A stretch of DNA of 63,097 nucleotides, counting the filler, from Folioceros fuciformis (lineage: Eukaryota): NCBI GenBank assembly GCA_049999805.1. It is 11 parts of 11 records of this genome, joined end to end, with 100 filler letters (N's around TTAATTAATTAA, not from the genome) between each part and the next. Parts side by side here need not be neighbours in the genome. Positions count along the whole stretch, not along the records: positions 43,064 to 50,817 come from JBNGIO010004864.1; 10 more parts are not named here. The stretch is one strand, 5' to 3'. Position 1 is the stretch's first letter; each line of letters begins with the position of its first letter. The notes below the pieces were generated by a model. The model did not search any database. It was not told the DNA's origin and saw only the letters and a program-made list of their open reading frames with translations. The position numbers and the translations under genes were made by a program. This document shows, piece by piece, positions 3,459-61,900 of the stretch.

Positions 3459-3594
3459 TGCTCGCGTCGATCGCTGGCCCAGAGGCTTGCTGGCCTGGCC
3501 ACACTGCGCTTACGTCAACCGCATCTCGGCGTCCACACTTAGGCATCCTGCTCCCGGCGTTCGCGATGCTCGCGTCGATCGCTGGCCCGGCAAG

Positions 3595-16222: not shown

Positions 16223-19200
16223 CATCTATTTCTTTACTCCCACTTGTTGGTCATGATTCATTTGCATGTTCAGTCTTCAGGGTCGACTGTATGTTGCTTG
16301 TGGACTGTGAATTCAGCTGGGTTGTCTTTAATCTTCAAGCGCCATAGCCAACAACTTTTGTCCTTAGTTATGCTCCACCTTTCAAGTCACAGTGAATCAA
16401 GATGGTATTTCTGAGTACTTGCTCCAGTGTTCAAATTGCAGTGATGAAGGCTGCTGCCTACATAATGTTGAGCCTCTTCACATCCTAAGTATTCTCTGAG
16501 CTGTTAAGGCATAGAATCACGCGCCTCCTGTTAATCATGGCGTCCTCCACTTCTGATTCTGATGCTGCTCCCAAAGACCACCGCTACCAGCACGATGCTA
16601 AAGGTAGATTTGCGCCTAGGACAACTACCAAGACCGAGACGGGTGTGGAGATCAAGGCGTCTAGCAGCAAGTGAGGAGTTGGAAGACCGAAAGGGACAAC
16701 AAAAGAAGTTCTGGAGTGGCACAAGGTCAAAGGCTTCAGAACTTGTCAGGATATGAGCGCTCCTTCCTCTCCTCCATCACCCAAAGCTGAGTACACCTGT
16801 CAGGTCAGGGTCATAAACCTGGATTTTGCCTACTATGATAAATACTCCACCCGCCGTGTGCATGTGCATGTACTCCACCCTCCAACATCCTCAGCACGAA
16901 CAACTTGAGTTCCATGATCAGTTTGATCAAAGTGTGAATCTTGAAGCACGGTTGTGTCATCATCATCATCAAGAGGGGGATCCTTGGAAGCTCCCACTGA
17001 TGCCCAAGTGCTCCCTTCATCAAAAGTAACACTTCTGGCATATATTACTTTATTTTTAGGGACATCATAGAGTTTATACGCCTTGATGCCCTCTGTGTAG
17101 CCTAACATCAAAAGTTTACATGCCTTGTCTGATAACTTTTTCCTCTTTTCTTTAGGGACAAAAGCATATGCTACACAGCCAAAGGTGCACAGGTGAAGAA
17201 TGGATGGCTTGCGCCCTGTGAAAGCTTCATACAAGGTAAGTCCAACTACTGAAGTTGTGGGCAATCTATTTTTAAGATAAGTAGATGTCATAATGGCTTC
17301 TGCCCAATATGGCAGGGGGAGCTGAGCATGATGTAGAAGAGAAGATGTCATCTCGTGCAACGTTAGATTAAGACGCTCAGCAACTCCATTTTGCTGTGGA
17401 GTGTAGACTATTGTGACCTGGCGACTAATGCCCTCAGCCAAACAGTAATCCTGAAACTCATTGAAGGTAAACTCTCCCTCGTTGTCTGATCTTAAAGTTT
17501 TAAGTTGCTTACCAATCCATCTTTCAACATACCTAAGGTAATCCTTAAAGTGAGTAAAGCATTCACTCTTCTTCTTCAAAATGTAAGTAGTAACAAACCT
17601 AGTTTTGTTATCTGTAAATGTCAGGAAGTATTTACCACCACCAATGGACTCCTGTGAGAGAGGTCCACACAAATTTGTATGGACAAGTTCCAAGACATCC
17701 GAAGCCTTGTGTGGTGCCTTGTTTTCAAAGGCTGCTTGATGTTTCTTTGAAAGAACATAGGATTCACACAAAGGAAGTGGTACCAGAGGCCCTATATGCC
17801 CATGCTGGTAAAAATCGCATACAGCTAGTTTTTGTAACTTTGCTGAATGTGGATGGCCTAGTCATGAGTGCCATAACTTTGACTTTTCTATCTATTGTGT
17901 AGACGCAGTAGTTGCACCCTTTGTCAAGTTTAAGAATGGTACGCTACTGTTTGTGTGGAGACAAAACAAGTCTCTATCTGATGACCCATAGGCAAGTACT
18001 TTATTATGATTAAAAGCATCTAGTACTTGACATTCTGTATGAGTGAATAAGATGTGACATTGATTATTAGCATTCAGCTTTCTGACTAAAATGAGATTTC
18101 GTGTCATATCAGGTACGTAGTAGACGTCATGCAGTACTAAAACATTTCCTGATGGAATTGGCAGGTCTATCGTGCCAAAACCAGGAGAGACTAGGGATCT
18201 GTCATCACCTAGGTATATGTACTAATCCTTAACTGCTTTGTACGTTTGAAACGCTCCTCTGTCTAAGCAAATGTGGGCTATAACCCCAGTGTCTAAGTTC
18301 CAATCAATGGTATGCTTAACATTTGTATTTGTTGACAGGTAAGCAAGAGACAAGAATGAACGTGTTGCAAACACTGTTGTACCGACTGTGAGGGTAGAAG
18401 GGGTTGGTTGCTTCTTCACAACCACGCGAGTCTCAGCACTGGTTGAACCCTCCTTGCAAGGAACACCAACTTGCTTTTTTTGGCACTCACGCTCCTAGTG
18501 ACCAGGGAACTTGCACCAGCTGCAATTTCCTATCCTTTTTGGTTTTCTCAGGTTGGCTCCTTGTCCTTGTGAGCCACCACCTCTTGAGGTACTGCCCCCA
18601 CCCCTGTTGTAGGGTCTTCCTCCTCCATGTTCTCTGTTGGATGTATAGAGGGCTTGCTGTTTACCAGAACGTTTATTATAATACTTTGTTGCTTCCTCTT
18701 GTAGTAATGCTCCCACTGATTCTGCAAAGGTAGTTTCTGGAAGGGAATCTGTTGAGGCCTTTGCAAGTTTCTCAGTTTGGAGTCAAGAAGCGTTAAGGGA
18801 GGTCATGAAATGTGACCAGGATATGAGGAAATAAAGTGTAAGTGTATCATCCTTTATAACCTTGTTTGAAGCACTTTCCAGCCTAGACACAAGTGTTTTG
18901 AAATGTCCAAGATGCTTTCAATTGATTCTCCATCTTTCATTTTGCAAAGCTGTAAATTTCGCAAAGCTGTCATCTGACTTCTATGATTGTTGCTTGCATA
19001 CAGGTCTTGAAGTCTGGACCAGATTTTGTACATCTTGAACTTGTACATCCTAAAGTTTGTCTTAACATCTCTGGGGTAAGACCACTTCGGATGAGGAACA
19101 TGGCTGCTTCATCTTTTGCATCCCATGCATCCTGTAACTTTATTTCAGCTATTGTAGATGGAGTGGAGACAACTGGGGGCTTATCATCCCCAATAACTAT

Positions 19201-21691: not shown

Positions 21692-24120
21692 ACGGCTCCG
21701 GCTACGATGTCTGGATGCAGCGTGTGAAGATTCTTCTCCAACTTGAGGACTTGTGGGATGTGGCTTCTAGCGCAACCGCCAAGCCTGCTGCCGCAACGTC
21801 AGCCCCCGATGTCATCGCCAAGTGGGAGAAGATCAACTTGCGTGCACGAGCTTTGCTTCAGTCCGTGCTGGACAGCTCAATGATGCACCATGTCAACGAC
21901 GCCGAGTCCACAGCTCAAGCTTGGGCGTCCCTCCATCAGGTCTTCGCAACAATGAATTCCACATCGCTTGTTTCAACCAGCCGTCTTTTCTCGAATTTGC
22001 ACATGAAGGAGACACAGTCGGTCGAACAACATATCCAGCAGTTTCGCCATTTGAGGCAACGGCTGGCGTCGGCCGGCACAAAGGTCTCGGAGCTCCAAGC
22101 TGCCGTTGCTCTCCTCATGTCTCTACCAGAACGTTTCAGAACCTTTGTAAGTACTCAAAATGCAACCCTGCGAGCAGCAGCAGCAGCGCCTACAGGCACA
22201 GTGACAATCACATTGTCAGAAATCATCGGAGCATTGCTGGAGGAGGAGTCCTCTCACAAATCAACTCGAGAAGCATCTCCATCCTCCGGCAACAGCAACA
22301 ATCGAGTCCTTTTTGCCGCAAGGGGGAGAGGGTGAGGCTGTTTTCAAGCCGGCCGACCACCTTGGCAGTCCAAGAAGCCAGCATATAATAGAAGCTGGGG
22401 GAGCTCACCTTCGACAAAGAAGAAAGGTAGCTGTAATTGGTGTCTTTTCCCTGGACACCACGAACACGAATGTCGCAAGAAGAAGGCGGGAGAACCTCGC
22501 CGGACAGCACCTCTAGAAGCTCATGCTGCTACCAAGGCTCGGGGCCCATCCATCCTTGCGGTGTACGTGGCGCATGCGGTTGGCGACAAGCATGCGTTGT
22601 ACCTGGACTCTAGGGCGTCTGCTCACATCTGCAACACCAAGTCTGCATTCGTCTCTTACAAGCAAGGCCCGGCACAACAGTACGTGCTTTTGGGAGACGA
22701 TAGCGGCCTGAAGGTTGAAGGTTCAGGTGCGGTCGAGGTCACACTCAACAATGGCGCCGTTCTAACTTTGGATGACGTGCTGTACGTTCTACAAATGGCG
22801 AAGAACCTTGTGTCAGTCCGCCAACTCTGTAAGCTGCACAAGTTTAGAGTGTGCTTTCAGGCTGAGGCCTGCATTGTAAGTGACGAAGGGGGAGATGGCA
22901 GCCCTATTGCTCTAGGCTCACCTATTCACGATTTGTACAAGCTGGACATCACTCTTCGAAGATTGAATGAAGGGAAGTCAAGTGCATGAGCTGCCATCTC
23001 AAGGAGAATCTCTGCATCTGATGAAGCTTTCCTGTGGCATTGCCGACTTGGGCACACAAATTTTCAACGACTCAAAAGCATAGCTAACTCGGAACTGTAC
23101 AAAGATAAACTAGATCTGTCAGTCCCAAATGATGTCTTTTGTGAATCTTGTATGTATGGCAAGCATCATAAGCTGCCGCATGACAATAAGGATGCCACAC
23201 GAGCTACACAGCTCCTAGAAGTCGTACATACTGACCTACGTGGCCCCATGTCCACCACTTCGTTTGGTGGGGCCAAGTTTTTCATGGTCATTGTAGATGA
23301 CTGGAGTCGTTATACCCTGACGTATTTTCTATCACATAAAAGTCAGGCGTTAGACATGTTTGTCAGGTACATACAGTATGTGGAGCGTTTTACAGGCCAC
23401 AAACTCAAGAGCCTGAGAAGTGACAACGCTAGTGAGCTGGCCTTTGGCGATTTTAAGGCATACTGTGAGAAGGAAGGCATACCAAGGCAGTTTACGGTGG
23501 CTTACTCTTCTGATCAGAACCCTCTCTCAGAAAGAAAGAACCGTTACATACAAGAATGTGCGAAGACAATGCTCCACCAAGCCCAGTTGTCTCGAGGATA
23601 CTGGGCAGAGGCAGTCTCGGCTGTGACCTACATCCAAAACAGGCTACCAACATCAGCATTCACTGGAGAAACACCATATCAGCGCTGGACGGGTCACAAA
23701 CCTTGAATAACTCACCTCCGCGTTTTCGGCTCACCAGTGTATATTCATGTCCCTACAAAGACTAGGCGGAAGATGGACTACAAGGCATGCAAGCTGCTAT
23801 TTGTAGGCTACACGGAGGGAATCAAGGGATATAAAGTCTTCGATCCAGCAACTCGGAAGACAAGCTACTCTAGACATGTCATATTTGACGAACATCATGT
23901 TCTGGACTCAAGCTCAAAGACGTCCATGGAAAATAGTGATCAGAGTAGTTCGTCAGATAGTCAAGCCACAAACGTTTTCCCTAACAATAGTAGTACAAGT
24001 AGCATGCCTAGCAATGTTCAGAACATTACTTATTTTTCATCTGAGAGTGACAGTGATACTCACAGCTATGACGGGGCTGATTATGAGCCCCCGTCTCCAC
24101 CTGCTAATCTCACCCATGCA
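21692..24120 (+). mobile_element. Ty1/Copia gag, protease and integrase, degenerate and bounded by gaps
   Basis: Motifs GYDVWMQRVK, LLMSLPERF, LYLDSRASAH, LWHCRLGH, LEVVHTDLRGP, YWAEAVS and FVGYTEGIKGYK. Confidence 0.93.
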
Positions 24121-24220
24121 NNNNNNNNNNNNNNNNNNNNNNNNNNNNNNNNNNNNNNNNNNNNTTAATTAATTAANNNNNNNNNNNNNNNNNNNNNNNN
24201 NNNNNNNNNNNNNNNNNNNN

Positions 24221-27200
24221 CCCATTCTCAAACACTTCCTCCACCTTGTAAGGACCCATCCACCTCAGCCTCAGCTTACCTGGGAAATCCATGTACCTAC
24301 TGTCATACAGTAGCACCAGATCGCCCTGCACGATGGTCTCCTTCTTCCTCAACCTACCATCGTGGCGGGTTTTCCTTTGCTCTTGTATCCTATGTGTCTC
24401 CTCCAAGGCTTCTTCTCGGTCCTCCTCGTAGGTGATGAAAGCTTCCAACCTAGCTTCTTGGCTCTCCCTCACCGGTAGCCTAGCCTCCTCCATGACACGG
24501 TGAGTGGGAATCTCAAACTCAATGGGAAGAACAGGCGACATACCATAGGTCAAGTAGTATGGAGTCCTCTTCGTGGTGATCTTCTCTGTCGTCCTGTAAG
24601 CCCAAAGTGCTGAATGCAACTTGGTATCCCAATCGTACATGTGAGTCACAGTCACCTTGGTCAAGATGGTCCCCAAAAGACCATTGGTCTTCTCCGTCAA
24701 CCCATTCGCCTTCGGATTGTAAGGAGTGGTCTTCCTATGTCGAATGTTGAAGTAGGTGGTCAAGGCGGTGATGACTTCATTGAGGAAATGTGTACCTCTG
24801 TCGCTGACCAACTCCAACGGACACCCATAGCGTGCGATGATGTTCTCAAACAGAAATTTGGCCACTGTTGGGGCATCGTCCCGTCGGGTAGCCTCTGCCT
24901 CCACCATCTTGGTGCAGTAGTCCGTCGCCACTAAGATGTATTGCTTCCTTGTCCAGCGAGTAGGTGGACGAATCGGCCCTACAAAGTCGATCCCCCACTT
25001 CTCGAACGGAGCCAACGGCAAAATGTAGGTCAACGGCCACCTGGTTGTCAATGTGGGTCTCCCTACCCTTTGACAAGCATCACACCTTCTTACAAACTCC
25101 CACACATCCCTCTGCATGGTAGCCCACCAAAACCCAGTATCCAAGATCTTCTTGATGGTAATGGGGACTGAATAGTGGCCTCCTGCCTCTTCCGCATGCA
25201 AAGCTTCGGTCACCACAACACCTTCATTCACTTCCAAACAACGCCTCACCTTACCATTTGGGCCTAGTTTGTACAAGACCCCTTGCTTCAAACAATATGG
25301 GCCTGTCTTGTGCAAGAACACTGCCCTACCCTCGCGGCTCAATCCAGCTGGCATGATTCCAAACTCCAAAAATCTCCTCACCTCAACTGGTAGCAATTGC
25401 CTAGCACAAGGCCTTCCCAACCTGTCGCTACGGCGGTTCCTCTTCCTTCGAGCCTGGCTGACCTTTTGGCTACTCTCAACCCTTGTAGAGGTTCCTCCTC
25501 CCTCACCGGTAACCTGTTCATCGAATTCTCCCTCTTCTACTATATGTACTGCAGTAATCAACTCCTCATCAGGAAACCTGTCATCCGTTTCTCTAACCTT
25601 CCCTTTGGTTTTGAGTCTAGAAACAAAGTCAGCATTAACATGGCTCTTCCCTGCTCTTGTTTCCACCTCAAAATCAAACTCCTGTAGCAAGAGAATCCAC
25701 CTAGCGATCCTCCCTGATAGGTCAGGCTTGTTCACAAGATACTTCAAAGCAAAGTGGTCCACATGAAATACTACCTTGCAAGCTAGAAGGTAGTGACGGA
25801 ACTTCTTACAAGCGTAGATGATGCCCAAAGCCTCTCTCTCCGTTGTGGAGTAATTCCTCTCCGCATCCGTGAGTTGCCTTCCGGCATAGAAGATAGGGTG
25901 ATCCCTCTTCTTGTCGTCTTGTTGGCTGAGGATGGCCCCTATAGAATACGCTGACACATCCACATACACATGAAAGTTCTTCTCCCAATTTGGTGGGCTC
26001 AATGTGGGTGCTGCCACCAAACTCCTCTTCAAATCCTGAAACGCTTCCTCCCGCTCCGGGGTCCACTCATACAGCACATCCTTCTTCGTTAGCTGGGTCA
26101 AAGCTGCCGCCTTCTTAGCGAAGTCCTTGATGAATCTCCTGTAGTAACCCACCAACCCAATGAAAGCCCTGACCTGTCTCACGCTCTGAGGTGCATCCAT
26201 CTCCGAGATGATCTTCACCTTTTCCATGTCGACTTGCAACCCCCTGGCTGAAACTCTATGGGCTAGCAAGATACCCTCCGTCATGCAAAAGAAACACTTC
26301 CCCGGATGCAACTTGAGGTTAGTCTCCCTACACCTCTGCAAGCACTTCCTTAGCTGTTCCAAGTGTAGGTACCTCCTTCCAAAGACACAAAAGTCATCCA
26401 AAAACACCTCCATGAACTTCCGAAGGAACTCCTTGAAAATGGTATTCACCACCCGCTGAAAAGTTGCCGGAGCATTGCAGAGCCCAAAAGGCAACTTGGT
26501 GTAGGCGTAGGTCCCCCAATCAGTTGTGAAAGTCGTCTTGTCGCGATCCTCCTCCCTCAGTGTGATCTGATTGTAACCTGAATACCCATCTAGAAAACTG
26601 TACATCTCATGTCCAGCAACTGTGTCCAGCACACTGTCCATGAAAGGGAGTGGATGATGGTCTTTCTTGGTCGCCTCATTGAGCTTCCTGAAGTCCTGGC
26701 AAACCCTCACCTTGCCAGCTTGCTTCTTAGGCACCACCACAATTGGAGCTACCCACTCACTAGTTAGGACAGGATAGATGACTCCAGCCTCCAAGTACTG
26801 ATCCAACTGCTCCTTCACAACCATGGAGTACTTTGGGTTCAATCGGTATTGCTTCACCCGAACCGGTGTGCTTCCCTCCTTGAGATCTATCCTATGAACA
26901 CCCAGCTCCTCTGGAACACCTGTCATGTCCGTCACCTTGAAGGCAAACACATCCAAATATTCAGTCAACAGTGCCTTCAAACCTACCTTCTCCTTGGGTG
27001 TGAGGTACTTGGACACCTTGACCTTCTTCCCTGGGGTCAACTCCATGTCCTCAACAGCATCGGGATCCACGTAAACTCCTTCAAGACTACTCCCTACACT
27101 TGTTCCTGATCCTTCTTCTGGGAAATCATAGTCATAGGCTTTCCCCTTCCAAAAGGCAGCTCCTTCCCTTTGCTCTTCATCCTCCTGTGGATCTTCATTC

Positions 27201-29659
27201 TCCACCACTTCAGTATGGAAACAAGTCACCTCTTGATCCAAATCCACCATCCTGACAGTATGCCCTACTCCCTTGTAGGCTCCTGTACTACTGGAAGTGC
27301 TACCTCCAATACTACCGGATGTGTACCCGGGGGATGGTCCTGCTGTTTCTCCCCCATAGGGAGCTTTGCTCCACGAGACAAACGAAACTTCAGCAGGTCC
27401 TGTAGGTTTAGACCTAAAGGTCACACCTTTCCTGCCAAAATCAAACACACAAGCTGTTCCGTACAACCACGGTCTCCCAAGGAGCACCTTGTACCCTAGG
27501 TCAGACACTGGCCTCATGACAATGTAGGTTAGCTTGAACATGATCCCTCCTATCACCGTGGGCACATCCTTCAACACTCCTAGAGGCTTCCTCTTGGTCT
27601 GATCTGCCATCCGAAGGTACACGCGGATAGGGTCGAACTCCGTGAACCCCAAACGGTGGGCTGTGTCCTCCGTCATGAGATTGACACCAGACCCCGTATC
27701 CAACGGTACATCCGGTACCAGACAACCTGCAATCTCCACCTCTATTTCAGGAGCTCCACAATCAGCCAACTCAACTGAACTCATCCAAGTCGGGACTGTC
27801 TTCCCTTCGAGTGGCTCCGGTATCCCTCGGATGGCTTCCTTGACGATCTTCCTGGCCTTGGGACTAACAGACAAGAGCTGTCTCAAGCTCACCACAAACT
27901 CCTGGTCAAGCAAGGCGTCAGCAAATCCAGCAACCTTCATGGCCAAAGCCTCCCTTGCTGTTGTTGTCTTAGGAGGATTGATCCCTCCATCCTCCTCGCT
28001 TCGATCAACCTTCTCTCCTTCCAGTTCCTTCTCCAAGGGACTTGCACTCTCCACCACCCCTGTCACAAGAGGGTCTGCAAACGTGACCTTCTTAGACCGG
28101 TGCATCAGCCTAGTCAGCTCTTCCTCCAGCATTGCAGCAACCTCCTTGCTGATGTTGGGTGGGAATGCTGATTCTTCAACCTCTCCTTCATCTAGTTCAC
28201 CTTCCTCTCGATGGGGTGGACCAACCTCTTGTCCAGTCGACACATCATTCTTCCCTTGCTGGACGAGTGGTTCCTCCCTTGACTCCGATGGTTTAGGAGT
28301 GTTGTCACGTTCTCTCCTCCTTCTCTTCTCTTCCTTCTTCGTCCTCTCTCGATAACGACGTTCAGAACGAGTGGTGACCCTTGCCACCATGACTTCTTCA
28401 CCATCGCTAGCTTCGCCTGAATATCCCTCCTCCACAATGCCAGAAAATGCTTGAGAGTCAATCAAAGGCTCCTCCTCAGCCTCCACCGACAACACAGGTG
28501 CGCTTGTCACCGGAGTTGTTGTCTCCACCGCAGGAGGAAGTCCCTCTTGCGGTGCCTCTGTGATCCTCACTCCGGATCTAGGCAGCGCAGGCCTAGGGAT
28601 GCCTGAACACCTTGGATCCCCAGCCCTGTGCCCTGGATCCTTACACACCTGACAAAACGGCACAAATCCAAGTTGCCTACGTGGCTCTGTGCACTCGTTA
28701 GCATAGTGTCCCGGCAAGCCACAATTGAAACAACAACCTGCTGCCACCACTTGTGGACGCTGGGACGGATCTGGCCTCCAATGGCCTGGAGATACTGGAC
28801 GAGGACCATACCTCATTCCAGGAGGTCCTGGTGGTTGGAAAGATGGCCGAATGGACTGTGGTGGTCGAGGAGCAGTCACAGCCTGTACCTGATAGGAGTC
28901 ATCCACGTACCAATAGTCTCCTGGCAGGTAGGTGTCCACTTGGTTGACGGCGTGGCGGGGAGCCCTAGTGCACTCTTGGTGGGTGTGTCCTGATTGGTGA
29001 CAAATAGAACAGTACACCAGCTGCCGGCCCGGTGAAGGTGACCTCCTTGGTGCTTGGTTGCGTACAGCCTTCACCTCCAACTCGGCCAGCCTCCTCGTCA
29101 ATGCCTCAACCTGGCTGGTCAATCCTCCACCACTTGAGGACGGTTCGCCTCTCTCCATCCTATAGGATCCTTTGCCTCTCTTGTCCTTCTCAGCTCGACG
29201 ATCCTCATCCTCCTCGCGCCTCTTGCGTGCTTTCTCCAGGTCCTTCCTCATCCTCTTCTCATAAGCCTTATCGGACTCCTCATCGGTGTAAGGATCCGAC
29301 ACAAGGCTATCATAATCTGGATCTGAGTGAGACGGTGACCTCGACCTTGAAGAGGAAGATGGGCTGTGATGTCTTGACCTCCTATGATGCCCATACTTCC
29401 GGTTCTGCTTCCTCTTCTCTCTGCTCAACTCCGAAAGCTCAAAATCTTCAGCAGCCTTCAAAGCCTCCTGTAAAGTGGTCACACCTCTTGTGCAGTAGGT
29501 CGCCATCCGATCGGGTAGTCCTCCAGCAAACCAATCCAAAGCTTGAGCATCCGTGTACCCTGGAGTACTCGGACCTCCCGGAACAACTGGCCTACCACGT
29601 GGGATCCTGTCCACATAGCTGTAGAACCTCTCAATGTAGTCATAGAGATCCTCCTTCCT
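24221..29659 (-). CDS. Ty3/Gypsy (non-chromovirus, Athila-like) gag-pol polyprotein, open across the whole contig
   Basis: About 1800 codons without a stop. Contains CCHC knuckles, protease LDTGS, RT FLDGYSGYNQI/FLDD, RNase H YSTTEREAL and integrase WGIDFVGP...WMGPY, in RT-RH-INT order. Confidence 0.97.
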
Positions 29660-29759
29660 NNNNNNNNNNNNNNNNNNNNNNNNNNNNNNNNNNNNNNNNN
29701 NNNTTAATTAATTAANNNNNNNNNNNNNNNNNNNNNNNNNNNNNNNNNNNNNNNNNNNN

Positions 29760-35601: not shown

Positions 35602-38600
35602 TGTTCGCGTGTAGATAAAAGAAGGGAATTGAATAGAATGTCACGATACATGTCATATGAACTTGACCAGGTGACGGTTATTGATTGTAACCGTCACCTA
35701 ACCCCTAACCCTAACCTGAACTAATAAAAAGAAAATTAAATATAACCTGTCACTCCCACTCAGGTGCAGGGTTAGTATAGTCAAGTTATTTACATAAAGT
35801 ACTCTAACTTATAAGAAACTTGAATCAGGGTTCAGTCTTCATCTTCGTCTTTGTCTTCGTCTTTGTCTTCGCGCGCCGCCATCGCCTTGCCCTTCCCGAT
35901 TACTGGATCCGGAGCCGAACTCCACCTCAAGTCCTTGCCTGATGCGCGGAGTTCGAGCCCAGCTGCGTGTTGATAGTGCTTCACGCGTCCGAGCCCCTTC
36001 GTCAAGATGTCTGCTGTCATCAGCTCCGTCGGGCAATACTCAACTCTGACTGTTCCAGCATTTACAACTTCCCTTATGTAATGGTGCTGAATTTCTATAT
36101 GTTTGGTGCGCGCGTGGAACCTGGGGTTCATAGTCAAGGCTATAGCACTTTGATTGTCACAGAATAGAGTCACCGGTAGGGTCTGTGGTACACCAAGCTC
36201 GGTGAGCGCTCCCACTGTCCAGGTGACCTCCTTGCATGCCTCAGTGAGGCTCTTGTACTCAGCTTCGGTCGAAGAGAGCGCAATAGTCGGCTGCCTCCTG
36301 CTGCTCCAGCCAATGGCGCCTCCATCTAGCAGGGTAATGTAGCTGGAGATACTCTTCCTGCTGTCAGAGTCTCCGGCCCAGTCCGCATCGCTGTAGGCGA
36401 CCATTTGCAATGCTTTGTGTGCCTTTGAGCTATACAGGATGCCCCAGTCCACGGTGGCTGCAATGTATCTATACAGCCTCGTCATCAGATCATTATGCTT
36501 CGAATTTGGGTTGGAGACGAATCTTGAGGTCAGCCCGCTACTGAAAGCTAAATCAGGCCTTGTGCCTATCATAAGATGCATGACTGACCCGTTCTTGGAG
36601 GCATACTGATCCACGATGGCTGCTTCATCCTCAGGTATGCTTCCAACCTGAGCTTCGTACTTTGTGTTTTGTTCTACATGTGTAGAGATAGGCTTGCATT
36701 TAGTCATTCAATATCGTTCTAAGATTTGCATGGCATATTTTGTTTGATGCAGGAAAATTGTGCCCTCTTTTCGATTTCGCTGCAACTGCATGCCTAGACA
36801 GAAAGTAAGTGCCCCTGCTTCCTTGATCTTGAACTCACTGCTCAGCTGACGCTTGAGAATGAAGATCAGCCGAGGCGAATTAGTAAGGACTATGATATCG
36901 TCTACATATATGGCCAAAGCTATGAAGGAACCTGCTTCACGTCTCATGTATACATTGGTGTCAGCATTCAAGCTTGCGTACCCCAACTCGTGCAGGAAGG
37001 TATCTATCTTCCCAAACCATGCCTTTGCACTCTGTTTTAGACCGTACAGCGATTTGAGCAACTTACAGACTGGGTTTTGCAGGTCATGGGGGATGCTGAC
37101 GCCATCCGGTACTTGCATAAAAATGTCTTCTTGCAGGTTTCCATACAGAAAAGCTGTTGTGACATCAAGTTGCTCCAATTCGTAATCATTGACCGCGGCC
37201 AGGGCAATGAACAACCTGAGTGTGGTCAGCTTTACCACTGGGCTAAAGGTATCATCGTAATCTATTCCTGGAATTTGGGAGTAGCCTTTTGCAACAACTC
37301 TTGCCTTGTATCTCTCAATGGTGCCATTGAGAGATACACCCATCTGCTCCCTACTGCCTTTCTATTTGGTGGGAGACTGGTCAAGACCCAAGTCTTGTTC
37401 TCATATAGGGAGCTCAGCTCCGAGTCTATGGCCTTCTGCCACAACTGTGCATCTGGGCACGACAATGCATCCTTATATGTTGGAGGTTCATACCAAGCAG
37501 AATAGGAGGCCAAGCAATATGTTAAATGTGACTTGGGGTGCCTGAAATCTTCAGATTCGTAGAATTCAGGCTGCCTTCGTGTTCTGCTAGATGTCCTAGG
37601 CTCCAGATGTGCATGCTTTAATCTCCGTCTTTGCTGTGCAGATAGTTGTGACTGCGGAGGTGCTTGGAATCTGGTGCGTGTTTGTGGGCGTATAGACTGC
37701 GGTGCTGCAGGTATTTGTGGAGCTGCAGTCTGTGATGCTGGCAATGGCACAAGGACATCGCCAACAAGGATCTCCTGGTCCTCATCCTGTGAGTCTTCAT
37801 CTGAGAGCTGCCAGTCACCGACATCTGCTCCCACTGTATGCAAAGATTCTACACCTTCGACAAATACTACATCACGGGAGTGGACGGTTTGTCTAGTTTG
37901 CCTGTTGAGCAGCTTAAACCCCTTTACGCCTTCTGTAAAACCAACGAATATGAAGGGGCTTGACTTTGGCTCGAATTTTCGTCTGATGTCTTTAGGAATC
38001 TGTGCATACGCCTTGGAACCGAAGACACGCATATGAGATACACTAGGCTTGCTTCCCGTCCATAGCTCGTATGGCGTGGCACCAAGTACGGATTTGTAAG
38101 ATACTCGGTTCTGAATGTAGGCTGCATAAGCGACAGCTTCAGCCCAATAGCATTTGGGCAGCTGTGCATACTGTAACATGCTGGAGGCCATGGTTTCCAG
38201 ACCCCAGTTTTTGTTTTCGGTCACTCCATTCTGCTGTGGCGTATGCGGATTTGTAAACTGCCTGACAATGCCTTGCTGCTTGCAGAAGTTGAGGAAATCT
38301 CCTGCAATATATTCACCGCCATTGTCGCTCCTGAGGGCCTTCAGTTTGTGACCCGTTTGCAGCTCAGCCCAGTTAATGTACTCCAAGAAACAGGAGAAAG
38401 TAGCAGATTTACGGAGTAAGAAATAAACCACACAAAAACGTGTGTAATCATCTATGAACGTCAAGAAATACTCCTTGCCTCCGAGGGACTTCGGCAGGGG
38501 TCCACACAAGTCACTATGGACGAGGCCAAGAGGTGAAGTGGCTCTCGTTGGTGGATCAGTGGGGAACGAAGTCCGCTTGTGCTTGCCAAGGATACAGGCT

Positions 38601-39851
38601 TCACATTTGCCGAAGTCCTTGTGTTCATCTAAGGTGAGCCCGTCCACCATACACTTCTGGTGCATGTCAACAAGTTTTCTGAAATTGACATGGCCAAGTC
38701 TGAGATGCCAGAGATAGGTCCTGGAAGGCCGTATAGGTTGCGAGGAATTGGCTGCATTGGCTTGTGCTGACTGGAGGTCAAGGTGGTACAGGTCATCGGA
38801 CTCCAATTGTCCAGTAGCCAGAAGGTTGCCATCAGCTGTCTCCACTATGCATTTGCCTCCTCCAAAACAAACATAACATCCCGACTGGTCGATTGTCCGA
38901 ACGAAAACAAGGTTCTTTGTCAGGCCAGGTACGTACAGGACATCCGGAATTGCTATGTGCTGAGCTGGCTCCAGGTTAAGGTTTATGGTACCCTGTCCTT
39001 CAATTCTATGCTTGGTGTCGTCCCCAAGACATACATACTTAGCTGGCTCACTTTCATGCATTTCAGTGAAGTAGGAGGCATGCGGGGTCATATGTTGTGA
39101 TGCCCCGCTATCGATATACCAGGTATGCTCCTTCTGGCTGGCATAACAGGTGACCACATTGCATTGGGAATTGGAAACTTTTGTGGAGGCGGCAACAGGG
39201 GTGACAGGTGACACGTTGGAGAAGAAGGCACGACTATACTTGTTCATAGTAATAGCAAGATGTCCAGAGGGGCCAGAATGGCCACTTTCACCTGCCAACC
39301 GTTTCCTGCAGGTTTCCCATGAGTGGTTTGTCATACCACAGTGGCCGCATGGTGGTCTAGATCGGCCACCAGCAGAATTTTGAGGTCTGAAACCTCCTCG
39401 GCCTCCTCTGGCTCCTCGGCCTCCTCTCGTGAAAACTCCACGGCCTCTTTGGCCTCGACCCCGTCCAGGTTTGTTCAACCATAAGGCCTTGTCATTAGAA
39501 TACAGCGCTCTGTCGCTGTTAAGGCTAGTACTCGCAATTTTTTTTTCGGGACTCCTCAGTTAGCATAGCAGCTATCACCCTGTTTACAGTGATTGGGCGG
39601 ACTTCCTGCAGGCTGTGTACAACACCCGTCCAGGATTCGGGCAGCGTAGTCAGCAAGATTACTGCTACTAATTCTTCAGCCAGGTCAAAGCCAGCAGAGA
39701 TGAGCTTGGCTCTCCAGTTTCGGAAGTCAAGGACATGCTTGTCCACTGTATCCACCTCCGTCATTTTCAATCCTGCAAACTATTTTAGCACATAAGTTTG
39801 CAGCATCAAGTCCCTCGAGTCGTAGACTTCATTTACTTGTTGCCAGTATTG
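35602..39851 (-). mobile_element. Near-complete Ty1/Copia (same family as 3595-6760) with a short candidate 3' LTR at about 35602-35747
   Basis: Long ORFs at 37262-39478, 36708-37343 and 35832-36707. Shares the SEDFRHPKSHLTYCLA linker with the first copy. PPT-like GAGTGGGAG near 35755. Confidence 0.95.
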
Positions 39852-47530: not shown

Positions 47531-48033
47531 GGATTAACGGAAAATATGGGACTAGAAGCCAATTCACAATTGGACTCTTGCAAGGTTGGACTAAAAGTTG
47601 ACAACGTAGTTCAACCCCCCCACTGTGAAGGTCGTGGGAAGAAGTAGACAAAGAACTTTCCTCAACGCGATTGTTGGCCACGCGCTGTGATAGAGAGGAT
47701 CAGAGAGAGGTCGAAGCGAATGGGAATGAATTGGTCAGGGGAATGGAGTCACAGCTAACACCGCCCATTGTTATTAAATTCTAGTCAATGTTCCTAGGAA
47801 TCCTAGCCAACTTGGAACCGGGTCACTGGCCGGCAGTTGCACCGCGTCCCAAGTCACTAGTCGCGTACCCCACCTGCTGACCGCGTCCCGGCAAAGACGT
47901 CACCTTGCCGCGTACCCCATGATGTGCTGGGGGGAGGGGGGGGGTCATGAAAGAACAGTCATGGAGTCTTTCTTGATGAGACCGCATGAGTACTCCCTCA
48001 GCCCTGTTCCAAATTGATCACAAGTTTGGACCC

Positions 48034-50176
48034 ATGGCGGAGCTGGAGCTGCATGGGAGAGTTACGGCACTGACAATCATCTGCTGCCTCCTGATCATGA
48101 CCAACTCTGTCCACGGTGAGTTCAACTGAGTGTACATGAGATTCGCCTGAATTCGAACTCCTACCTTGGAATGTTGAGCTTATCTTAAACGTGACGTCCT
48201 TTGTGGTGTAGGTTGTGCCGTCAATATTATCAACTCTTGCTCCCACGAGATCACCTCGTGCACCCGATCTGGAAGCAGCCCCGTGCTGCGAAAGATCTTG
48301 CCTCCAGAAGGCTCCCAGAGCCTGAGCTTCGAGCTTACCGACTGCAAATTTCCTTCCGGAGGAATATGGGCATCTTCGACAGGGCAATGCGACGACGAAT
48401 CCACTTCCAACCTTGTGGAGTTCAACATTGGCGACGGCGTTGCTGACTTCTACGACCTGAGCAACGTGAGAGCCTACTCCATCGGTGTGCAGATCGTGCC
48501 GTCCACACCAAACTGCGGGGCACCCATCTGCTCCATCCCCAACATCACCTCCTTCTGCGCCGTCAGCAGCGTCAACCGCCTTCTCTTTCACAACGCGACC
48601 AGCAGCTCAGTAGGTCGTGAACCTTATGCCTGCATCAACACAGACGGCTCCGTCGGTCGTGCCACCAATGGCACCCTCGCGTTTAAGGCTGCCTGTCCCA
48701 CCTCTTACAGCTACTCCTTCGACGACAATGCCACCTTCACCTGCTCTAACGGCACCGACTACCAAGTCATCTTCTGCCCCATCCCCACCACCGTCATCTG
48801 CATCGGTACGTTTTTTTTTTCCACCTGCTTGTACGAGAGCTCAATTATGCCTCACCAATGATGCTCAAGGCCATATGGGGCTGTAGGAAGGACAGTATAC
48901 ATTCATTCATCCATTCATAGAAGCTTGCGCTTTTGCAACTTGCTCAATTGCAGGTTGCACAAGCGGTGGCGGTGGCATCCAGCTGTGGAAGATTGTGGCA
49001 GTGGCGGGGGCGTGTGTGGCGTTGTTGGTGGCAAGCGCTCTTGTTGTGGCCTGGCGGTGGAAGGTCTACTCCAGGAGGCACCAGCAGGACGTGGACCTGA
49101 TTGCGCAGCTGCAGGAGAGGGAGACAGCCACCGCGCTCATGTCACTCCGGGAGCTCCGCAAGGCCACGGCCAATTTCTCCGAGACCTGCCAGATCGGGGT
49201 GGGCGGGTTCGGGACCGTCTACAGGGGGCAACTCGAGGACGGCACTCCCGTGGCCATCAAGCGGAGCAAGCGGCAGTCGTCCCCGGAGCACAAGCACCAG
49301 TTCCTGACCGAGGTCAGGATCCTGACCAAGGTGCACCACCGCCACCTGGTGACGCTGCTGGGGTGCTGCCTGGAGAACAAGACGGCGCTCCTGGTGCTCG
49401 AGTACGTCCCCAACGGCACCCTCAAGGAGCACCTCCGCCCACCTAGACCCTCCGCCGGCCGCCACGTCCCTCTCACGTGGACGCAGCGCCTCCGGATCGC
49501 CATCCAGACGGCGGACGCGCTGGCGTACCTCCACGACGCCAGCAGCCCCCCCGTGTACCACCTGGACGTCAAGTCCGCCAACATTCTGCTGGACGACAGG
49601 GCAGACGCCAAGGTGGCGGACTTCGGGCTCTCCAGGCTGGCGCCGGGGCTGGACACCTCCCACGTCACCGCGCAGGAAGGGATGCCCGGGACGCTGGGCT
49701 ACATGGACCCCGAGGCCATGCTCAGCACGCACCTGTCGGGGAAGACGGACGTGTACGGCTTCGGGGTGGTCCTGCTGGAGCTCATCACCGCGCAGGCCGC
49801 CGTGGATGCGAGCAGAGGCGACGGGCCGGAGAGGAGCCTCGTGAGTTGGGCCACGGACCACATTTCCAGGGGGGAGTTGGACGAGATCGTGGATCCGGCT
49901 CTGCAGCAGCTGGGAGGGAGCTCCGGAATTGGGAGGCAAGCCATCTTTAGAGTTGGGGAATTGGCTGCCTCGTGCTTGCAATTCAACTCCAAAGCCAGGC
50001 CGACCATGCGAGAAGTGTGGAGTGCATTGCAGGCTATCTGGGACGAGTCGGAACAACCCCAAAGGTTAGACAACCTGGAAGCATTGCAACCAAGTCTGGT
50101 GCCCGTGGTGGTGGATTTTGAGCAGTCAGGTGGTGGCGGTGCATTCTCAGACTGGTCTTCACTCCAAGGAAGGTGA
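48034..50176 (+). CDS. Receptor-like kinase with a thaumatin (PR5)-like ectodomain, TM helix and non-RD Ser/Thr kinase, 3 exons
   Basis: Exons: 48034-48115, 48212-48805, 48954-50176, with two phase-1 GT-AG introns. Has a signal peptide, DFYDLS, FKAACPTSYSYSFDD, YQVIFCP, GVGGFG, VAIK, HLDVKSANILLD, DFG and GYMDPE. Confidence 0.92.
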
Positions 50177-50284
50177 TCTCTCCTAGTCTAACGGCTCCCA
50201 AAGCTATGGTCTGCACTTCAAACTGCGAATTGCAATGCCAGAATGATCCAGAAGGTCTAACCATGTGCCATCATGTTGGTTGAG

Positions 50285-50680
50285 CAACGTAATTGGAACA
50301 TAATCTGGCTGGACGAATGGCAGTCCCAGCACATCTGTAGGTTTTGCGTTACCAGCGTCCCATCGGGAGTGGACAAGAGACCAAAAGCCAAAGCTAGCTT
50401 CTCATCACGCCATTACCACCTGTAGTTCAACATCCTTCTCTTTGGCTTCAACAGAAGCCAGGTTTCCGACAGGCTCCGAGCAGACACAACCATAAGGGAA
50501 GATCAGCCTGCAATGGCATTGTGGACAACAAATCTTGAACCATGGTGAAGTGACCTGCACGGCCAAGAAGGTCTTCCATACAGACATAGTGCTCAAACTC
50601 CGGGGTGATGCCATGATCTCTTGTCATGGATTGGAAGCACTTGACGCCTCTATCCACCTCTCCAGCATGGCTGCAAGCTG
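50285..50680 (-). pseudogene. PPR-E-DYW remnant
   Basis: Reads ACSHAGEVDRG..HYVCMEDLLGRAG..LLGACR, then RDEKLALAFGLLSTPDGTLVTQNLQMCWDCH. Confidence 0.88.
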
Positions 50681-50817
50681 GTGAAGGATAAGGAGCTCGG
50701 GAGTAGACAGCGGTGCGCCTAGGGAACAACAGCGAGATAAGTGTGGGGGTGAAGGATAAGGAGCTCGGGAGTAGACAGCGGTGCGCCTAGGGAACAACAG
50801 CGAGATAAGTGTGGGGG
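50681..50817. repeat. Perfect 68-bp tandem repeat, two copies, running into a gap
   Basis: Units start at 50681 and 50749. Confidence 0.92.
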
Positions 50818-51585
50818 NNNNNNNNNNNNNNNNNNNNNNNNNNNNNNNNNNNNNNNNNNNNTTAATTAATTAANNNNNNNNNNNNNNNNNNNNNNNNNNN
50901 NNNNNNNNNNNNNNNNNTCGTGGAGTGCCTTCATGAAGTGCCGAACTCAAGCTTGAATGAGAAACGACGAGCTCATCGATTCCAACTCTTCTCGTTTGCG
51001 CACTTAATCTTCTCTGTTGACGATTAGAGAATGATCTTGAGTGACTTGACGTCAATTCGATGTTGCCAGGGTGGGTTTCTGCCGGTGGATTCCAGCCTTG
51101 ATCTTGCAACGTATGGAAGAGAGCATCCAGCCAGCTGTCGCCAAGAAAATGTTGTGATCTCGGTGAGGAAGAATGCCCGGTCCACTTGTCATTGCTGTTG
51201 CGATGTGAGCGTCCACGAATTCGATCCCGATCTTCAACACTTCGCCTTGTTGAAGCTTGAGAGCGGCGATGATTCCTTGCCATTTGAGAATTGGGAATCT
51301 GGTGTAGAAGAGAAGACTTGCAAAGGATGTCTTGTAGAGAAAGCACTGAAGGGAAAAAAAGCGTTTAGGGCTCCTTCTCCCCTACTTTCTCTTTTAAATG
51401 CCATTTGCTTATACCCCTTTAGATCCCACTCAAAACGGATAGGTTGAGTAGTCAAATAAACGAACAAGAATTGTTTCTAACGTTTGCATTTTGACTAAAC
51501 TATCATTCACACATCTAAATGTATGAACTACTCCATGATCTAAACATAATGCCTAGAAACCATGGAGATACCCCTAGAGCCTAGA

Positions 51586-52401: not shown

Positions 52402-52501
52402 NNNNNNNNNNNNNNNNNNNNNNNNNNNNNNNNNNNNNNNNNNNNTTAATTAATTAANNNNNNNNNNNNNNNNNNNNNNNNNNNNNNNNNNNNNNNNNNN
52501 N

Positions 52502-58989: not shown

Positions 58990-61900
58990 TGGTGAAGAAG
59001 AAGAGAGGAGGAGGCAAGCAGAAGAGGAGAAAGAGAGGTCACACTCTCACAATAGAGACACATTATACAAGGGAGCTCAAGGGGGTATTTATACCCTCTA
59101 GAAGAGCTCCCTAGGAAGCTTCACAAGAAGCCCACAGGAAGCTGCACAAGAAGCTTCCTACAGATTAGCTTAAGCTATACTAAACTAATGATACTTAACT
59201 AGACATTAATCTTAGACTAAACACATTAGTCTAAGCACATTGGGCTTTAATAACCCTACAACCTCCCCCTTAAAGGCCAATTTACCTTCATAGGAGAGTG
59301 GCCTACCTCATGCCCATGAGTGTCTGAGCTTGTGCGAATTGCTCTGAAGAGAGCCCCTTGGTAAGAACATCTGCAGGGTTCTGACTGGTGTGAACTTTGA
59401 CAAGTTGTACCCTCTTGTCTTCCAACACCTCTCGAATGAAGTGATACTTCACTTCCACATGTTTGGTCTTCGCATGAAACACTGGATTCTTCGCCAATTG
59501 GATAGCACTCTGGCTATCACAATGCAACACTGGCAGCTCAACCTTGATCCCCAAATCTCCCACTAGACGAGCAAGCCACATGGCTTCCTTGCACGCCTCA
59601 GTCGCTGCAACATACTTAGCCTCTGTGGTAGATAGTGTAATGCATGATTGCAAACGCGATCGCCATGAGACTGCCCCTCCAGTGCACATGAAGACATAAC
59701 CTGATATGGACCTCTTTTTATCCATATCCCCTGCATAATTAGCATCCGTATATCCCACTGCACATGCATCTTCACTACCAAAACATAAGCACAAAGCTTT
59801 TGTACCATTTAAGTACCGCATAACTCCTTTCACTGCCTCCCAATGCTTCCTGCCAAGGTTTGACCTAAACCTGCTGACTACTCCCATTGCAAAGGCAATG
59901 TCAGGACATGTAGCAATCATTGCATACATCAAACTCCCTACAGCTGATGAGTATGGAACCTTCTCCATTTTAGGTTTGTCCTCTATAGAGCTTGGGCAAT
60001 CTTTGCTCGAAAGTTTCACATATGGAGGCAACGGAGTACTCAATACCTTCCCCTTCTCCATATTGAAACGTTGAAGTACCTTGTTAATGTATTCAGTCTG
60101 AGACAAGTAAAGCAAATGCTTTTGTCTGTCTCGACGAATACGCATGCCAAGAATATGGCTTGCCTCTCCCAAGTCTGTCATGTCAAAGCGACCATTCAAC
60201 TTTGACTTCAACGCTGAAATCTCATCACTGTTAGTCCCAGCAATTAGCATATCATCCACATAGAGGACCAGAATGAGCAAGTTTCCATCCTTAGCTTGCT
60301 TCGTATAGAGGCAACGATCCTCATCGCTACGTTTGTAGCCTTGAGAAAGCATAAACGAGTGGAATTTGAAATACTACTCCCTGGTTGCCTGCTTCAAACC
60401 ATAAAGGCTCTTCTTTAACCTGCACACCAGACTCTCTTTGCCCTTCTCAATGAAACCCTCTGGTTGCTGCATATATACCTCTTCCTGGAGATCACCATGC
60501 ATAAATGCCTTCACATCCATCTGGATAAGTTCCATGTCGTGCCTCGCAACCAGACCAAGGACACATTGCAAGGTGGTCATTTTGACAACCGATGAGAAAA
60601 TCTCATCAAAGTCAATACCTTGCCGTTGCTTAAAACCCTTCGCAACCAATCGTGCCTTGTATTTGGGTTTGCCATAATGGGGTATGTCCTTCATCTTATA
60701 CACCCATTTGCATGGCAACGCCTTCTTGCCCTTAGGCAACCGAACCAACTCCCAAGTTTGGTTCTTGTGGAGCAAATCCATCTATGACTGCATCGCCTTC
60801 TCCCACTTGTCTTTGTCAGGTATTGACATGGCCTCTTGGTAACAAGAGGGCTGCCCACAATCCGTTAGCATGACATAATCAAGAGATGCAACATACCTGT
60901 CAGGAGGACGTGAGATCCTTTCTGACCTATGAAGCACTGGCGCCTCAACCGAAGCTTGTTGCACTCTCTCCTCTTGTACAAGTGGAGGAACTTATTCCTG
61001 CACATCACGACGTTCAACCTGCGCAGGACGGTCAAGTCCGTCTTCTTGGAAGACCACCCGTCGCACCTCCACAATTGGAGTAGGCTTCTTGTGCATCTTG
61101 GTCTCATTGAAGAACACGTCATTGCTGCGAACCATCATCTTGGCCTCTGGATCCCACAGACGGTATCCCATCTCACCAGATTCACCATAGCCAAGAAAAA
61201 TACATTTCTTGGACTTGGGTGCCAACTTGTCCCGAAACTCCTTCGGAACATGGTAGTATGCTTCGCAGCCAAACACTCATAGATGCTTGTATGATGGCTT
61301 CTTTCCAGACCACATCTCTTGTGGAACCTATTCATCCACAGCCCTATTAGAAGATCTGTTAATAAGATGCTCTGCAATAGCCACTGCTTCTGCCCAAAAT
61401 CCGTTAGGCAATCCAGAGTTTGACAACAAACTACGCATCCTCTCCTGGATGGTCCTGTTCATCCGTTCGGCCACACCATTCTGGGGTGGAGTGTATGGGG
61501 CAGTCAATTCTCTCCTGATTCCCTTGGAATCACAGAATGACTAGAAAGCCTTCGAAACATACTCTCCCCCATTATTTGTCCTTAGACATTTCAGTGGCAA
61601 GCCAGACTGATTCTCCACAAGGGTGACGAACTTCTGAAACACTGTCAGAACATCATCTTTTTTCCTCAAAGGATAAACCCACACCTTGCGTGAGAAATCA
61701 TCTATGAAAGTGACAAAATAGGATGCACCACCTCACGATACCATGGGCATAAGTCCACAAACATCACTGTGAACCAACTCAAGAGGTTTACTTTTGCGTT
61801 TACCTCTTGCTCCATGTGGTGACTTCGTCTGTTTCCCATACAAACATTGTTCACACACGGAGAAATCGGAGAAGTCAAAAGCAGGGACGTAACCAAAATG

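Follow-up and report, generated by a model that had tools for sequence, protein, structure and literature searches.

The window analysed here is a stretch of 63,097 nucleotides of DNA from Folioceros fuciformis (assembly GCA_049999805.1), made of 11 parts joined end to end, and all positions refer to it. At 48034–50176, in the part taken from record JBNGIO010004864.1, lies a three-exon gene that is expressed and very probably encodes a single-pass receptor kinase of 632 residues, formed by an independent fusion. From the N-terminus, this protein would comprise a signal peptide, a divergent, low-cysteine thaumatin ectodomain, a stalk of about 20 residues, a membrane span and a kinase of the WAK/WAKL/LRK10L-1 clade with an H-L-D catalytic loop. 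The features of the gene are as follows (ORF, open reading frame; AF2, AlphaFold2).

47866..48033, plus strand: 5′ untranslated region, as far as the contig of run X1 reaches (contig begins at 47866; depth 0 in the bin 47700–47796)
48034..48115, plus strand: exon 1, ATG at 48034 and signal peptide, comprising 27 whole codons and the first base of a split Gly codon (translation, hydrophobic stretch, donor GTGAGT at 48116)
48116..48211, plus strand: intron 1, 96 nt, GTGAGT..GTGTAG, phase 1 (skipped by the contig)
48212..48805, plus strand: exon 2, the entire thaumatin-like ectodomain, 594 nt, with 13 Cys and five N-x-S/T sequons (Pfam PF00314, PDB search, AF2, Foldseek)
48806..48953, plus strand: intron 2, 148 nt, GTACGT..TTGCAG, phase 1, containing the stop (48859–48861) of the unspliced thaumatin ORF (skipped by the contig)
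48954..50176, plus strand: exon 3, short outer stalk, membrane span, juxtamembrane segment, kinase domain, C-terminal tail and TGA (translation)
48989..49054, plus strand: transmembrane helix, about residues 238–259, followed by basic residues (Kyte-Doolittle 19-residue windows peak at 2.8 over residues 232–263)
49187..50020, plus strand: protein kinase domain, RLK/Pelle, WAK/WAKL/LRK10L-1 clade (Pfam PF07714, tree)
49559..49567, plus strand: catalytic loop H-L-D, CAC CTG GAC (direct reading; zero differing letters in the contig)
50177..50600, plus strand: 3′ untranslated region (contig record positions 844–2491 of 2600 cover 48953–50600; about 109 nt of the contig lie further beyond)

Joined by coordinate with a script, the three exons (48034–48115, 48212–48805 and 48954–50176) give 1899 nt, or 632 codons with zero internal stops. 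The lengths of exon 1 (82 nt) and exon 2 (594 nt) place both introns in phase 1, which makes exon 2 a symmetric 1-1 exon. At both introns the split codon is G|GT, encoding Gly, and a Cys codon follows directly. Were exon 2 omitted, the frame would be kept and a protein resembling P0007, a liverwort relative described below, would result. The hydropathy profile of the 632-residue product shows two hydrophobic stretches, within residues 4–34 and 232–263.

The public run X1 contains 0.86 of the sampled words of 48000–50300; from runs X2 and X3 these words are almost absent. One X1 contig of 2600 nt aligns with 0 differing letters to 47866–48114, 48211–48804 and 48953–50600 and beyond; its gaps measure 96 and 148 nt, have GT..AG ends when the cut is moved by +1, and are exactly the two introns. 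In the X1 contigs over 47700–50600, both introns and 47700–47865 are uncovered and the exons lie at one flat depth, as expected of cDNA and not of genomic DNA. The word depth of the contig is about 100, a value that indicates presence only. Because one mismatch-free contig skips exactly both introns, the thaumatin ORF and the kinase are a single transcript. X1 records 2 and 3 match short conserved kinase stretches in 49558–49790 at 90–95% identity and then diverge from the window; they probably derive from paralogous kinase genes in that sample.

An earlier note on this DNA, made from the sequence alone, had described the three exons at these coordinates, with phase-1 introns on either side of the thaumatin exon, and reading, script and contig all bear this out. 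Its order of signal peptide, thaumatin domain and membrane span plus kinase agrees with hydropathy and Pfam. The junction 48805/48954, at which it had proposed to look for reads, is crossed by the 2600-nt contig with 0 differing letters. Separate thaumatin and kinase transcripts, which it had named as the contrary outcome, were not seen: one spliced contig joins all exons.

Ectodomain and kinase of the receptor

Exon 2 matches the Pfam family Thaumatin (PF00314) at 48376–48780 with an E-value of 1.4e-16 and 61.2 bits against a cut-off of 27.4, in a match that spans profile positions 60–209 only. A PDB sequence search returned Jun a 3 (4.8e-16), zeamatin, Act d 2 and thaumatin as the best solved relatives, and 26 PDB thaumatin-family sequences reached E ≤ 6e-4. 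The AF2 model of the ectodomain, from an alignment of 52 sequences, has a predicted local distance difference test score (pLDDT) of 91.5 and a predicted template modelling score (pTM) of 0.88. When this model was compared with the PDB by Foldseek, ranks 1–27 were all thaumatin or thaumatin-like, with template modelling (TM) scores of 0.61–0.76, among them thaumatin itself (7vcg, E 1.8e-14, TM 0.76). The ESM Atlas offered only ‘thaumatin-like protein, Streptophyta’ for the domain. By profile and by predicted fold, exon 2 is assigned to the thaumatin family, and the model has it adopting the thaumatin fold.

Among 1.84 billion representatives searched exhaustively with HMMER, 251 matched at E ≤ 1e-3, and only 24 of these at E ≤ 1e-10. 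Top matches were the 805-residue protein P0124, proteins of 211–236 residues at 40–49% identity, and the 661-residue protein P0130. P0124 consists of four tandem near-identical copies of the low-cysteine thaumatin domain and may be a tandem gene array fused into one model. A thaumatin tree was computed from 88 near-complete domains out of 161 scanned, 73 partial rows having been dropped. In this tree, a split with a support of 100 in the Shimodaira–Hasegawa-like approximate likelihood ratio test (SH-aLRT) separates 17 low-cysteine rows (7–13 Cys), including the Folioceros domain and P0130, from 71 canonical rows, which include all 11 other thaumatin-kinase ectodomains kept (angiosperm or unnamed). 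Inside the low-cysteine clade, the Folioceros domain falls in a subclade (98) with four proteins of 211–236 residues, too short for a kinase domain, and P0130 sits in another subclade.

With 13 Cys, against 14–16 in most canonical rows, exon 2 falls short of the 16 Cys of large thaumatin-like proteins, and the alignment shows that a Cys-rich stretch of the canonical rows is absent from it. The cysteines conserved within the low-cysteine clade are kept. The description of this domain as ‘compact’ in the earlier note therefore holds for the reduced number of cysteines and not for its length, since its roughly 197 residues are close to the 198–222 of solved thaumatin-like chains.

We also counted residues in the alignment columns that we take to be those of the acidic REDDD cleft, over the 71 canonical rows and the 16 clade-mates. 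Three of the five positions are kept in the Folioceros domain and two are changed. The Arg column, with R in 61/71 canonical rows and 0/16 clade-mates, has Ser here; the first Asp column (D in 64/71 canonical rows; N in 10/16 and D in 3/16 clade-mates) has Arg. By contrast with these changes, E69 is kept in the Glu column (E in 66/71 canonical rows and 15/16 clade-mates) and D81 in the second Asp column (D in 63/71 and 15/16), as is the Asp-Asp pair, D170/D171 (D in 68 and 60 of 71 canonical rows, and in 14 and 10 of 16 clade-mates). The cleft is mentioned under this name by Petre et al. (PMC3048497); this and the other papers given by PMC number are cited for the accessible parts of their text. 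With two of five conserved cleft positions changed, the sensing of glucans, raised as a possibility in the earlier note, finds no support in the sequence.

The exon-3 product matches PK_Tyr_Ser-Thr (PF07714, 4e-46, at its residues 78–355) and Pkinase (4.7e-44). Its PDB matches run from FERONIA (1.1e-62) and BAK1 (8e-58) through SYMRK, Pto and BRI1 to IRAK1 and IRAK4, and on these similarities the kinase is assigned to the RLK/Pelle (IRAK-type) family. A search with the kinase gave 1145 matches at E ≤ 1e-10. Among the best 120 listed, unnamed and liverwort proteins lead, with Calypogeia fissa at 53–54% and Riccia sorocarpa at 60% (partial), followed by a Sphagnum WAK bearing GUB_WAK_bind and EGF domains; most of the named angiosperm proteins among them are WAKL14, WAKL20, WAK or LRK10L-1.x. 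Neither a PF00314 domain nor the name LRK10L-2.x occurs in any of these 120 best listed of the 1145 matches. In the ESM Atlas the kinase fell into generic plant kinase clusters that carry no subfamily information.

For the placement of the kinase, 68 rows were chosen: the Folioceros kinase, 13 unnamed or bryophyte proteins, 9 WAK, 7 WAKL14/20, 8 LRK10L-1, 2 PERK and 5 others, together with 11 SD-2b kinases, 9 SD-2b-like thaumatin-kinases and 3 thaumatin-kinases labelled DLSV/CRK-like. A quick tree used all 68 rows and a careful IQ-TREE analysis 66 rows and 296 columns, the long-branch proteins P0014 and P0076 being left out. The Folioceros kinase nests in a clade with WAK, WAKL14/20 and LRK10L-1 at 100/99 in the careful tree and at 100 in the quick one. 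Within that clade it pairs with P0031 of Riccia (99/87 in the careful tree, with which the quick tree agrees), and with six proteins it forms a 7-row clade (99/99) whose three named members are from liverworts (Calypogeia fissa twice, Riccia sorocarpa). All 12 other thaumatin-kinases lie outside the Folioceros clade, grouping with SD-2b kinases at 100/98 and, when the three DLSV-like proteins are counted in, at 99/98. Kinase identity is 42–57% to WAK-type rows against 33–40% to thaumatin-kinase and SD-2b rows. In the approximately unbiased (AU) test, a tree that forces the Folioceros kinase into one clade with the 12 thaumatin-kinases was rejected (log-likelihood difference 276.45, p 4.4e-9).

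The nesting supports a kinase of WAK/WAKL type, as the earlier note had suggested from motifs. Judged by its ectodomain, the gene is not classed as a WAK: Thaumatin is the sole Pfam match there, in place of GUB_WAK_bind, WAK_assoc or EGF.

The VAIK Lys, the alpha-C Glu, the Asp, Lys and Asn of the H-L-D-V-K-S-A-N loop and the DFG motif are all present. No Arg precedes the catalytic Asp, so that the kinase is non-RD; the H-L-D reading in place of H-R-D, already made in the earlier note, is the same in the contig. Five members of the 7-row clade have HRD, the Folioceros kinase has HLD and P0031 has HLN. Since Leu is common to the Folioceros and Riccia proteins and the other five are HRD, this Leu is a shared derived state of that pair. 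P0031 (R1sor_012353, 234 residues) is a truncated model whose first residues lie in the juxtamembrane segment, and its HLN loop has lost the catalytic Asp.

Other thaumatin-kinases and the origin of the fusion

Receptors with a thaumatin head are known from several plant groups. Arabidopsis PR5K (At5g38280) and its paralogues have the same architecture as the Folioceros receptor, with signal peptide, thaumatin-like ectodomain, one membrane span and Ser/Thr kinase, and PR5K has been proposed to be a pathogen or stress sensor (PMC3048497, PMC10868138). The PR5K kinase belongs to LRK10L-2, a group in which the thaumatin head is called Arabidopsis-specific in the accessible text of PMC3552996, whereas the Folioceros kinase falls in the WAK/WAKL/LRK10L-1 clade; the two are set against each other here by published class and not by direct sequence comparison. 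According to the accessible part of Petre et al., the kinases of thaumatin-kinases resemble lectin-kinases, none were found in Physcomitrella or Selaginella, and known thaumatin-kinase ectodomains retain the cysteines as well as the residues of the acidic cleft (PMC3048497), unlike the Folioceros domain with its 13 Cys and two of five cleft residues lost.

The ‘PR5-like receptor kinase’ and ‘SD2-5’ proteins of grasses and Salicaceae (P0342 from Lolium, P0346 from Aegilops, P0362 from Populus) combine a thaumatin domain with an HLD kinase, as does the Folioceros receptor. Their kinases nevertheless form a clade of their own within or beside the SD-2b G-lectin kinases (100/98), far from the Folioceros kinase, and their ectodomains are canonical, with 14–16 Cys, on the opposite side of the 100 split. 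Three further thaumatin-kinases, P0180, P0211 and P0250, have HRD kinases in a 100/100 clade of their own, apart from both the SD-2b and the WAK types. The label DLSV/CRK-like that we give these three is a provisional one, based on motifs; they would be yet another chassis for the thaumatin head. The earlier note had placed angiosperm PR5 kinases in LRK10L-2. This stands for Arabidopsis (PMC3552996, in its accessible part) and fails for the grass and Salicaceae proteins, which fall with SD-2b in the tree, and for the three with the DLSV/CRK-like label.

The moss Ceratodon purpureus offers a parallel. Its protein KC19_3G166700 (P0130) carries a domain of the same low-cysteine thaumatin clade (39% identity) and an HLD loop. 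Unlike the Folioceros kinase, that of P0130 is of SD-2b type, and in the tree it forms a 100/100 group with two G-lectin kinases from the same moss; P0130 also has a long Pro/Ser-rich stalk, against about 20 residues in Folioceros, and a thaumatin domain of a different subclade. These differences in kinase, stalk and thaumatin subclade make P0130 a separate fusion, and the grouping of its kinase implies a further, moss-specific head swap, from lectin to thaumatin. In Table S2 of metaRLK 2.0, as far as accessible, 630 thaumatin RLKs are given for 163 species (2 bryophyte, 113 eudicot and 48 monocot), six of the proteins being from Ditrichaceae, and a fern study includes a Thaum.-RLK class (PMC12512272, in its accessible part). 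Among seed-free plants, in which the earlier note had proposed to look for the same architecture, the Folioceros receptor is not alone: Ceratodon has such a protein, and thaumatin RLKs are listed for the two bryophyte species of metaRLK 2.0 and for ferns.

On the kinase side, the WAKL14, WAKL20, LRK10L-1 and WAK proteins share with the Folioceros receptor the 100/99 clade, the ...Y/I-H-x-D-V/I-K-S/T-x-N-I-L-L loop and the G-T-x-G-Y-x-D-P-E activation segment. They differ in their ectodomains, which are GUB_WAK_bind and/or EGF instead of thaumatin, and in their catalytic loop, which is HRD in 16/16 surveyed WAK, WAKL and LRK10L-1 rows. The nearest relatives, P0006 and P0007 of Calypogeia fissa, P0031 of Riccia sorocarpa and the unnamed P0005, P0010 and P0013, have a cassette of membrane span, juxtamembrane segment and kinase at 53–60% identity to that of Folioceros. 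Their ectodomains are leucine-rich repeats (LRR) in P0010, some 40 residues in P0007, and none or a truncated model in P0005, P0006, P0013 and P0031; a thaumatin domain occurs in none of the six.

In BLASTP comparisons of the exon-3 product, homology to P0010, whose N-terminal ~346 residues contain LRR Pfam domains, begins at residue 7. Homology to P0007, in which the membrane span is preceded by a signal peptide and no more than about 40 residues, begins at residue 11. Because homology sets in at residues 7 and 11, the conserved cassette starts at the boundary of intron 2. The thaumatin exon would thus have been joined to a pre-existing cassette of transmembrane, juxtamembrane and kinase segments, and two routes can be envisaged. 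In the first, a 1-1 thaumatin exon would have been inserted into a phase-1 intron between the signal-peptide exon and the cassette exon of a short-ectodomain receptor. In the second, an upstream secreted thaumatin-like gene would have read through and spliced into the cassette exon, capturing the cassette. The mature chains of the closest secreted thaumatin relatives likewise begin with Cys after Gly, which speaks for the second route without deciding between the two.

Taken together, thaumatin-kinases are polyphyletic, with fusions on LRK10L-2, SD-2b-like and DLSV-like kinases already in existence. Since the AU test rejects a shared kinase clade and the thaumatin domain lies apart from those of angiosperm thaumatin-kinases at the 100 SH-aLRT split, a fusion in Folioceros independent of those in Arabidopsis (LRK10L-2), in grasses and Salicaceae (SD-2b-like) and in Ceratodon (SD-2b) is well supported, for Arabidopsis indirectly, and the convergence proposed in the earlier note stands on the same two results. 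The Folioceros receptor adds one more independent fusion, with a chassis that none of the sampled thaumatin-kinases has, and is not a new kind of receptor.

A wider picture may be drawn from the same clade, though we think it rather unlikely to hold in full. The clade with the liverwort members may own a portable cassette of stalk, membrane span, juxtamembrane segment and WAK-type kinase with a phase-1 start, on which ectodomains have repeatedly been swapped: thaumatin in Folioceros, LRR in P0010 and almost none in P0007. The switch from RD to non-RD would then have taken place in the Folioceros/Riccia branch at about the time of thaumatin capture, giving a receptor of the pattern-recognition type with a non-acidic cleft for a ligand other than beta-1,3-glucan.

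Genomic surroundings and alternative readings

The large ORFs of the window are remains of long terminal repeat (LTR) retrotransposons, lying on both sides of the receptor gene within the joined window. The Copia-type pieces were recognised by the Pfam set RVT_2/rve/gag_pre-integrs/SH3_retrovirus.

3510–4598, minus strand: Copia-type piece
10240–11463, plus strand: Copia-type piece
16833–17858, minus strand: Copia-type piece
22990–23703, plus strand: Copia-type piece
24176–29707, minus strand: Gypsy-type LTR-retrotransposon polyprotein, 1844 codons uninterrupted, with RVT_1, RNase H and integrase (Pfam); looks intact at the ORF level
37265–39559, minus strand: Copia-type piece
59306–60373, minus strand: Copia-type piece

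A 112-codon ORF at 50448–50786 on the minus strand overlaps the contig-covered 3′ untranslated region and may either belong to a neighbouring gene that runs towards the receptor gene or have arisen by chance; a pentatricopeptide protein, considered for it, was rejected, no Pfam match being found at E ≤ 1e-4. Paired runs of N occur at ten places in the window (e.g., 3359–3458, 50818–50917 and 52402–52501), each 44 N, 12 bases and 44 N, for a total of 880 N, and do not look like assembly gaps.

The alternative that survives best accepts the transcript as real and takes the gene for a chimera of recent origin, restricted to its lineage and under weak selection at most, born of exon capture in a transposon-rich region and devoid of dedicated ligand sensing. 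The flanking retrotransposon ORFs would suit such an origin, and a repeat-rich window fits a lineage-restricted gene while proving nothing. Relatives with the same make-up were sought in several ways. By tblastn, no second thaumatin or related kinase copy was found within the window; none of 1299 candidates among longer proteins (346–2000 residues) matched the thaumatin domain at E ≤ 1e-3, a weak negative, since the exhaustive HMMER search did find P0130 and others; and two metagenome scans, one with the thaumatin domain and one with the exon-3 product, returned no confirmed relative. The altered cleft, the loss of the RD arginine and a nearest relative that lacks even the catalytic Asp point the same way. 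Against this, the 632-codon frame is intact with all kinase catalytic residues kept, the clade-conserved thaumatin cysteines are retained, the AF2 model is confident, the X1 contig is present at its word depth of about 100 (presence only), and the cleft changes are common to the whole 16-row clade rather than private decay. We consider a chimera of this kind improbable.

Far less probable is membership of the known PR5K lineage, in which a single ancient land-plant fusion would have given rise to all thaumatin-kinases and the likeness to WAKs would come from divergence. The shared architecture, the HLD loop also seen in SD-2b-type thaumatin-kinases and a tree built without an Arabidopsis LRK10L-2 reference would leave room for it. 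It is opposed by the 100/99 placement of the kinase in the WAK/WAKL/LRK10L-1 clade, by the AU test (p 4.4e-9), by the higher identity to WAK-type rows and by the separate clade of the thaumatin domain. The published description of the LRK10L-2 thaumatin head as Arabidopsis-specific (PMC3552996, in its accessible part) and the 120 listed matches free of any LRK10L-2.x name add to this, and we regard this reading as largely refuted.

Just as improbable is a pair of independent genes, one for a secreted thaumatin-like protein that stops at 48861 and one for a kinase downstream of it, with the fusion an artefact of ORF reading or assembly. In its favour, the unspliced thaumatin frame does read through the donor to its own stop (ORF 48178..48861), the nearest thaumatin relatives of 211–236 residues leave no room for a kinase, and contigs can be chimeric and lose rare isoforms. 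Against it, a single mismatch-free contig passes over the two junctions at canonical GT..AG sites with the frame kept, no contig runs over intron 2 (an absence that contigs cannot prove), and upstream of the membrane span the exon-3 product lacks both a signal peptide and its own start codon.

Several further points weigh against an expressed, independently fused immune-type receptor. The label of X1 as RNA is a guess, and the run possibly comes from the same sample as the genome; its evidence is an assembled contig, in which strand and the full range of isoforms are not visible and rare variants are dropped, and there may be a minor isoform that retains intron 2 and encodes a secreted thaumatin-like protein. 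The thaumatin tree was built by a quick method, and its branches carry SH-aLRT values as their sole support. The kinase rows were hand-picked, 65 from 240 listed matches and 3 from the exhaustive HMMER search, and contain no LRK10L-2 (Arabidopsis PR5K-type) reference, which makes the exclusion from that group indirect; inside the WAK-type clade, the order of groups has supports of 36–55 only. The cleft residues are unlike those of glucan-binding thaumatin-like proteins, and non-RD status only correlates with immune receptors. From the HLN loop of the nearest relative, the Folioceros/Riccia sub-lineage may be drifting toward pseudokinases. The pairing of this thaumatin clade with this kinase clade was not found elsewhere in the searches made, so that the sequences lend no support to conservation of, or selection on, the fusion. 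Lying among retrotransposon remains, the gene may also be a recent chimera with little function.

Possible function and significance

As an independently fused receptor kinase, the Folioceros protein could work as follows. The thaumatin domain, glycosylated at its sequons, would bind a ligand outside the cell; this is most likely to be a carbohydrate or a molecule derived from the wall or from microbes and, given the altered cleft, need not be beta-1,3-glucan. Binding would be relayed across the membrane through a kinase that keeps all catalytic residues and lacks the RD arginine. Pattern-recognition receptors with non-RD kinases often depend on partner kinases.

An immune role would follow by analogy. 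Non-RD kinases are statistically linked with pattern-recognition receptors (PMC4295470), and the non-RD WAKs ZmWAK-RLK1/Htn1 and TaWAK6 act in cereal quantitative disease resistance (PMC6957155; both in their accessible parts). These two resemble the Folioceros receptor in having WAK-type kinases without the RD arginine, a likeness drawn from the literature and not from sequence comparison, and differ from it in being angiosperm genes with WAK ectodomains and a tested function. No account of a thaumatin ectodomain on a WAK-type kinase, or of this gene, was found in the published literature outside subscription journals.

Thaumatin-kinases are a known and poorly understood class of receptors. 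The gene reported here adds a fourth kinase chassis, of WAK type, to LRK10L-2, SD-2b-like and DLSV-like, and on the bryophyte side it is a second case, separate from the first. Defence proteins of the PR-5 type have therefore been taken up repeatedly by plants as the head of a receptor. Its low-cysteine thaumatin clade, with the altered cleft, may bind a ligand other than the classical glucan. In addition, the symmetric phase-1 exon at the edge of a conserved transmembrane-kinase cassette is a tidy natural example of ectodomain swapping and, with clade-mates that bear other heads, allows ideas on the assembly of new receptors at the cell surface to be tested.

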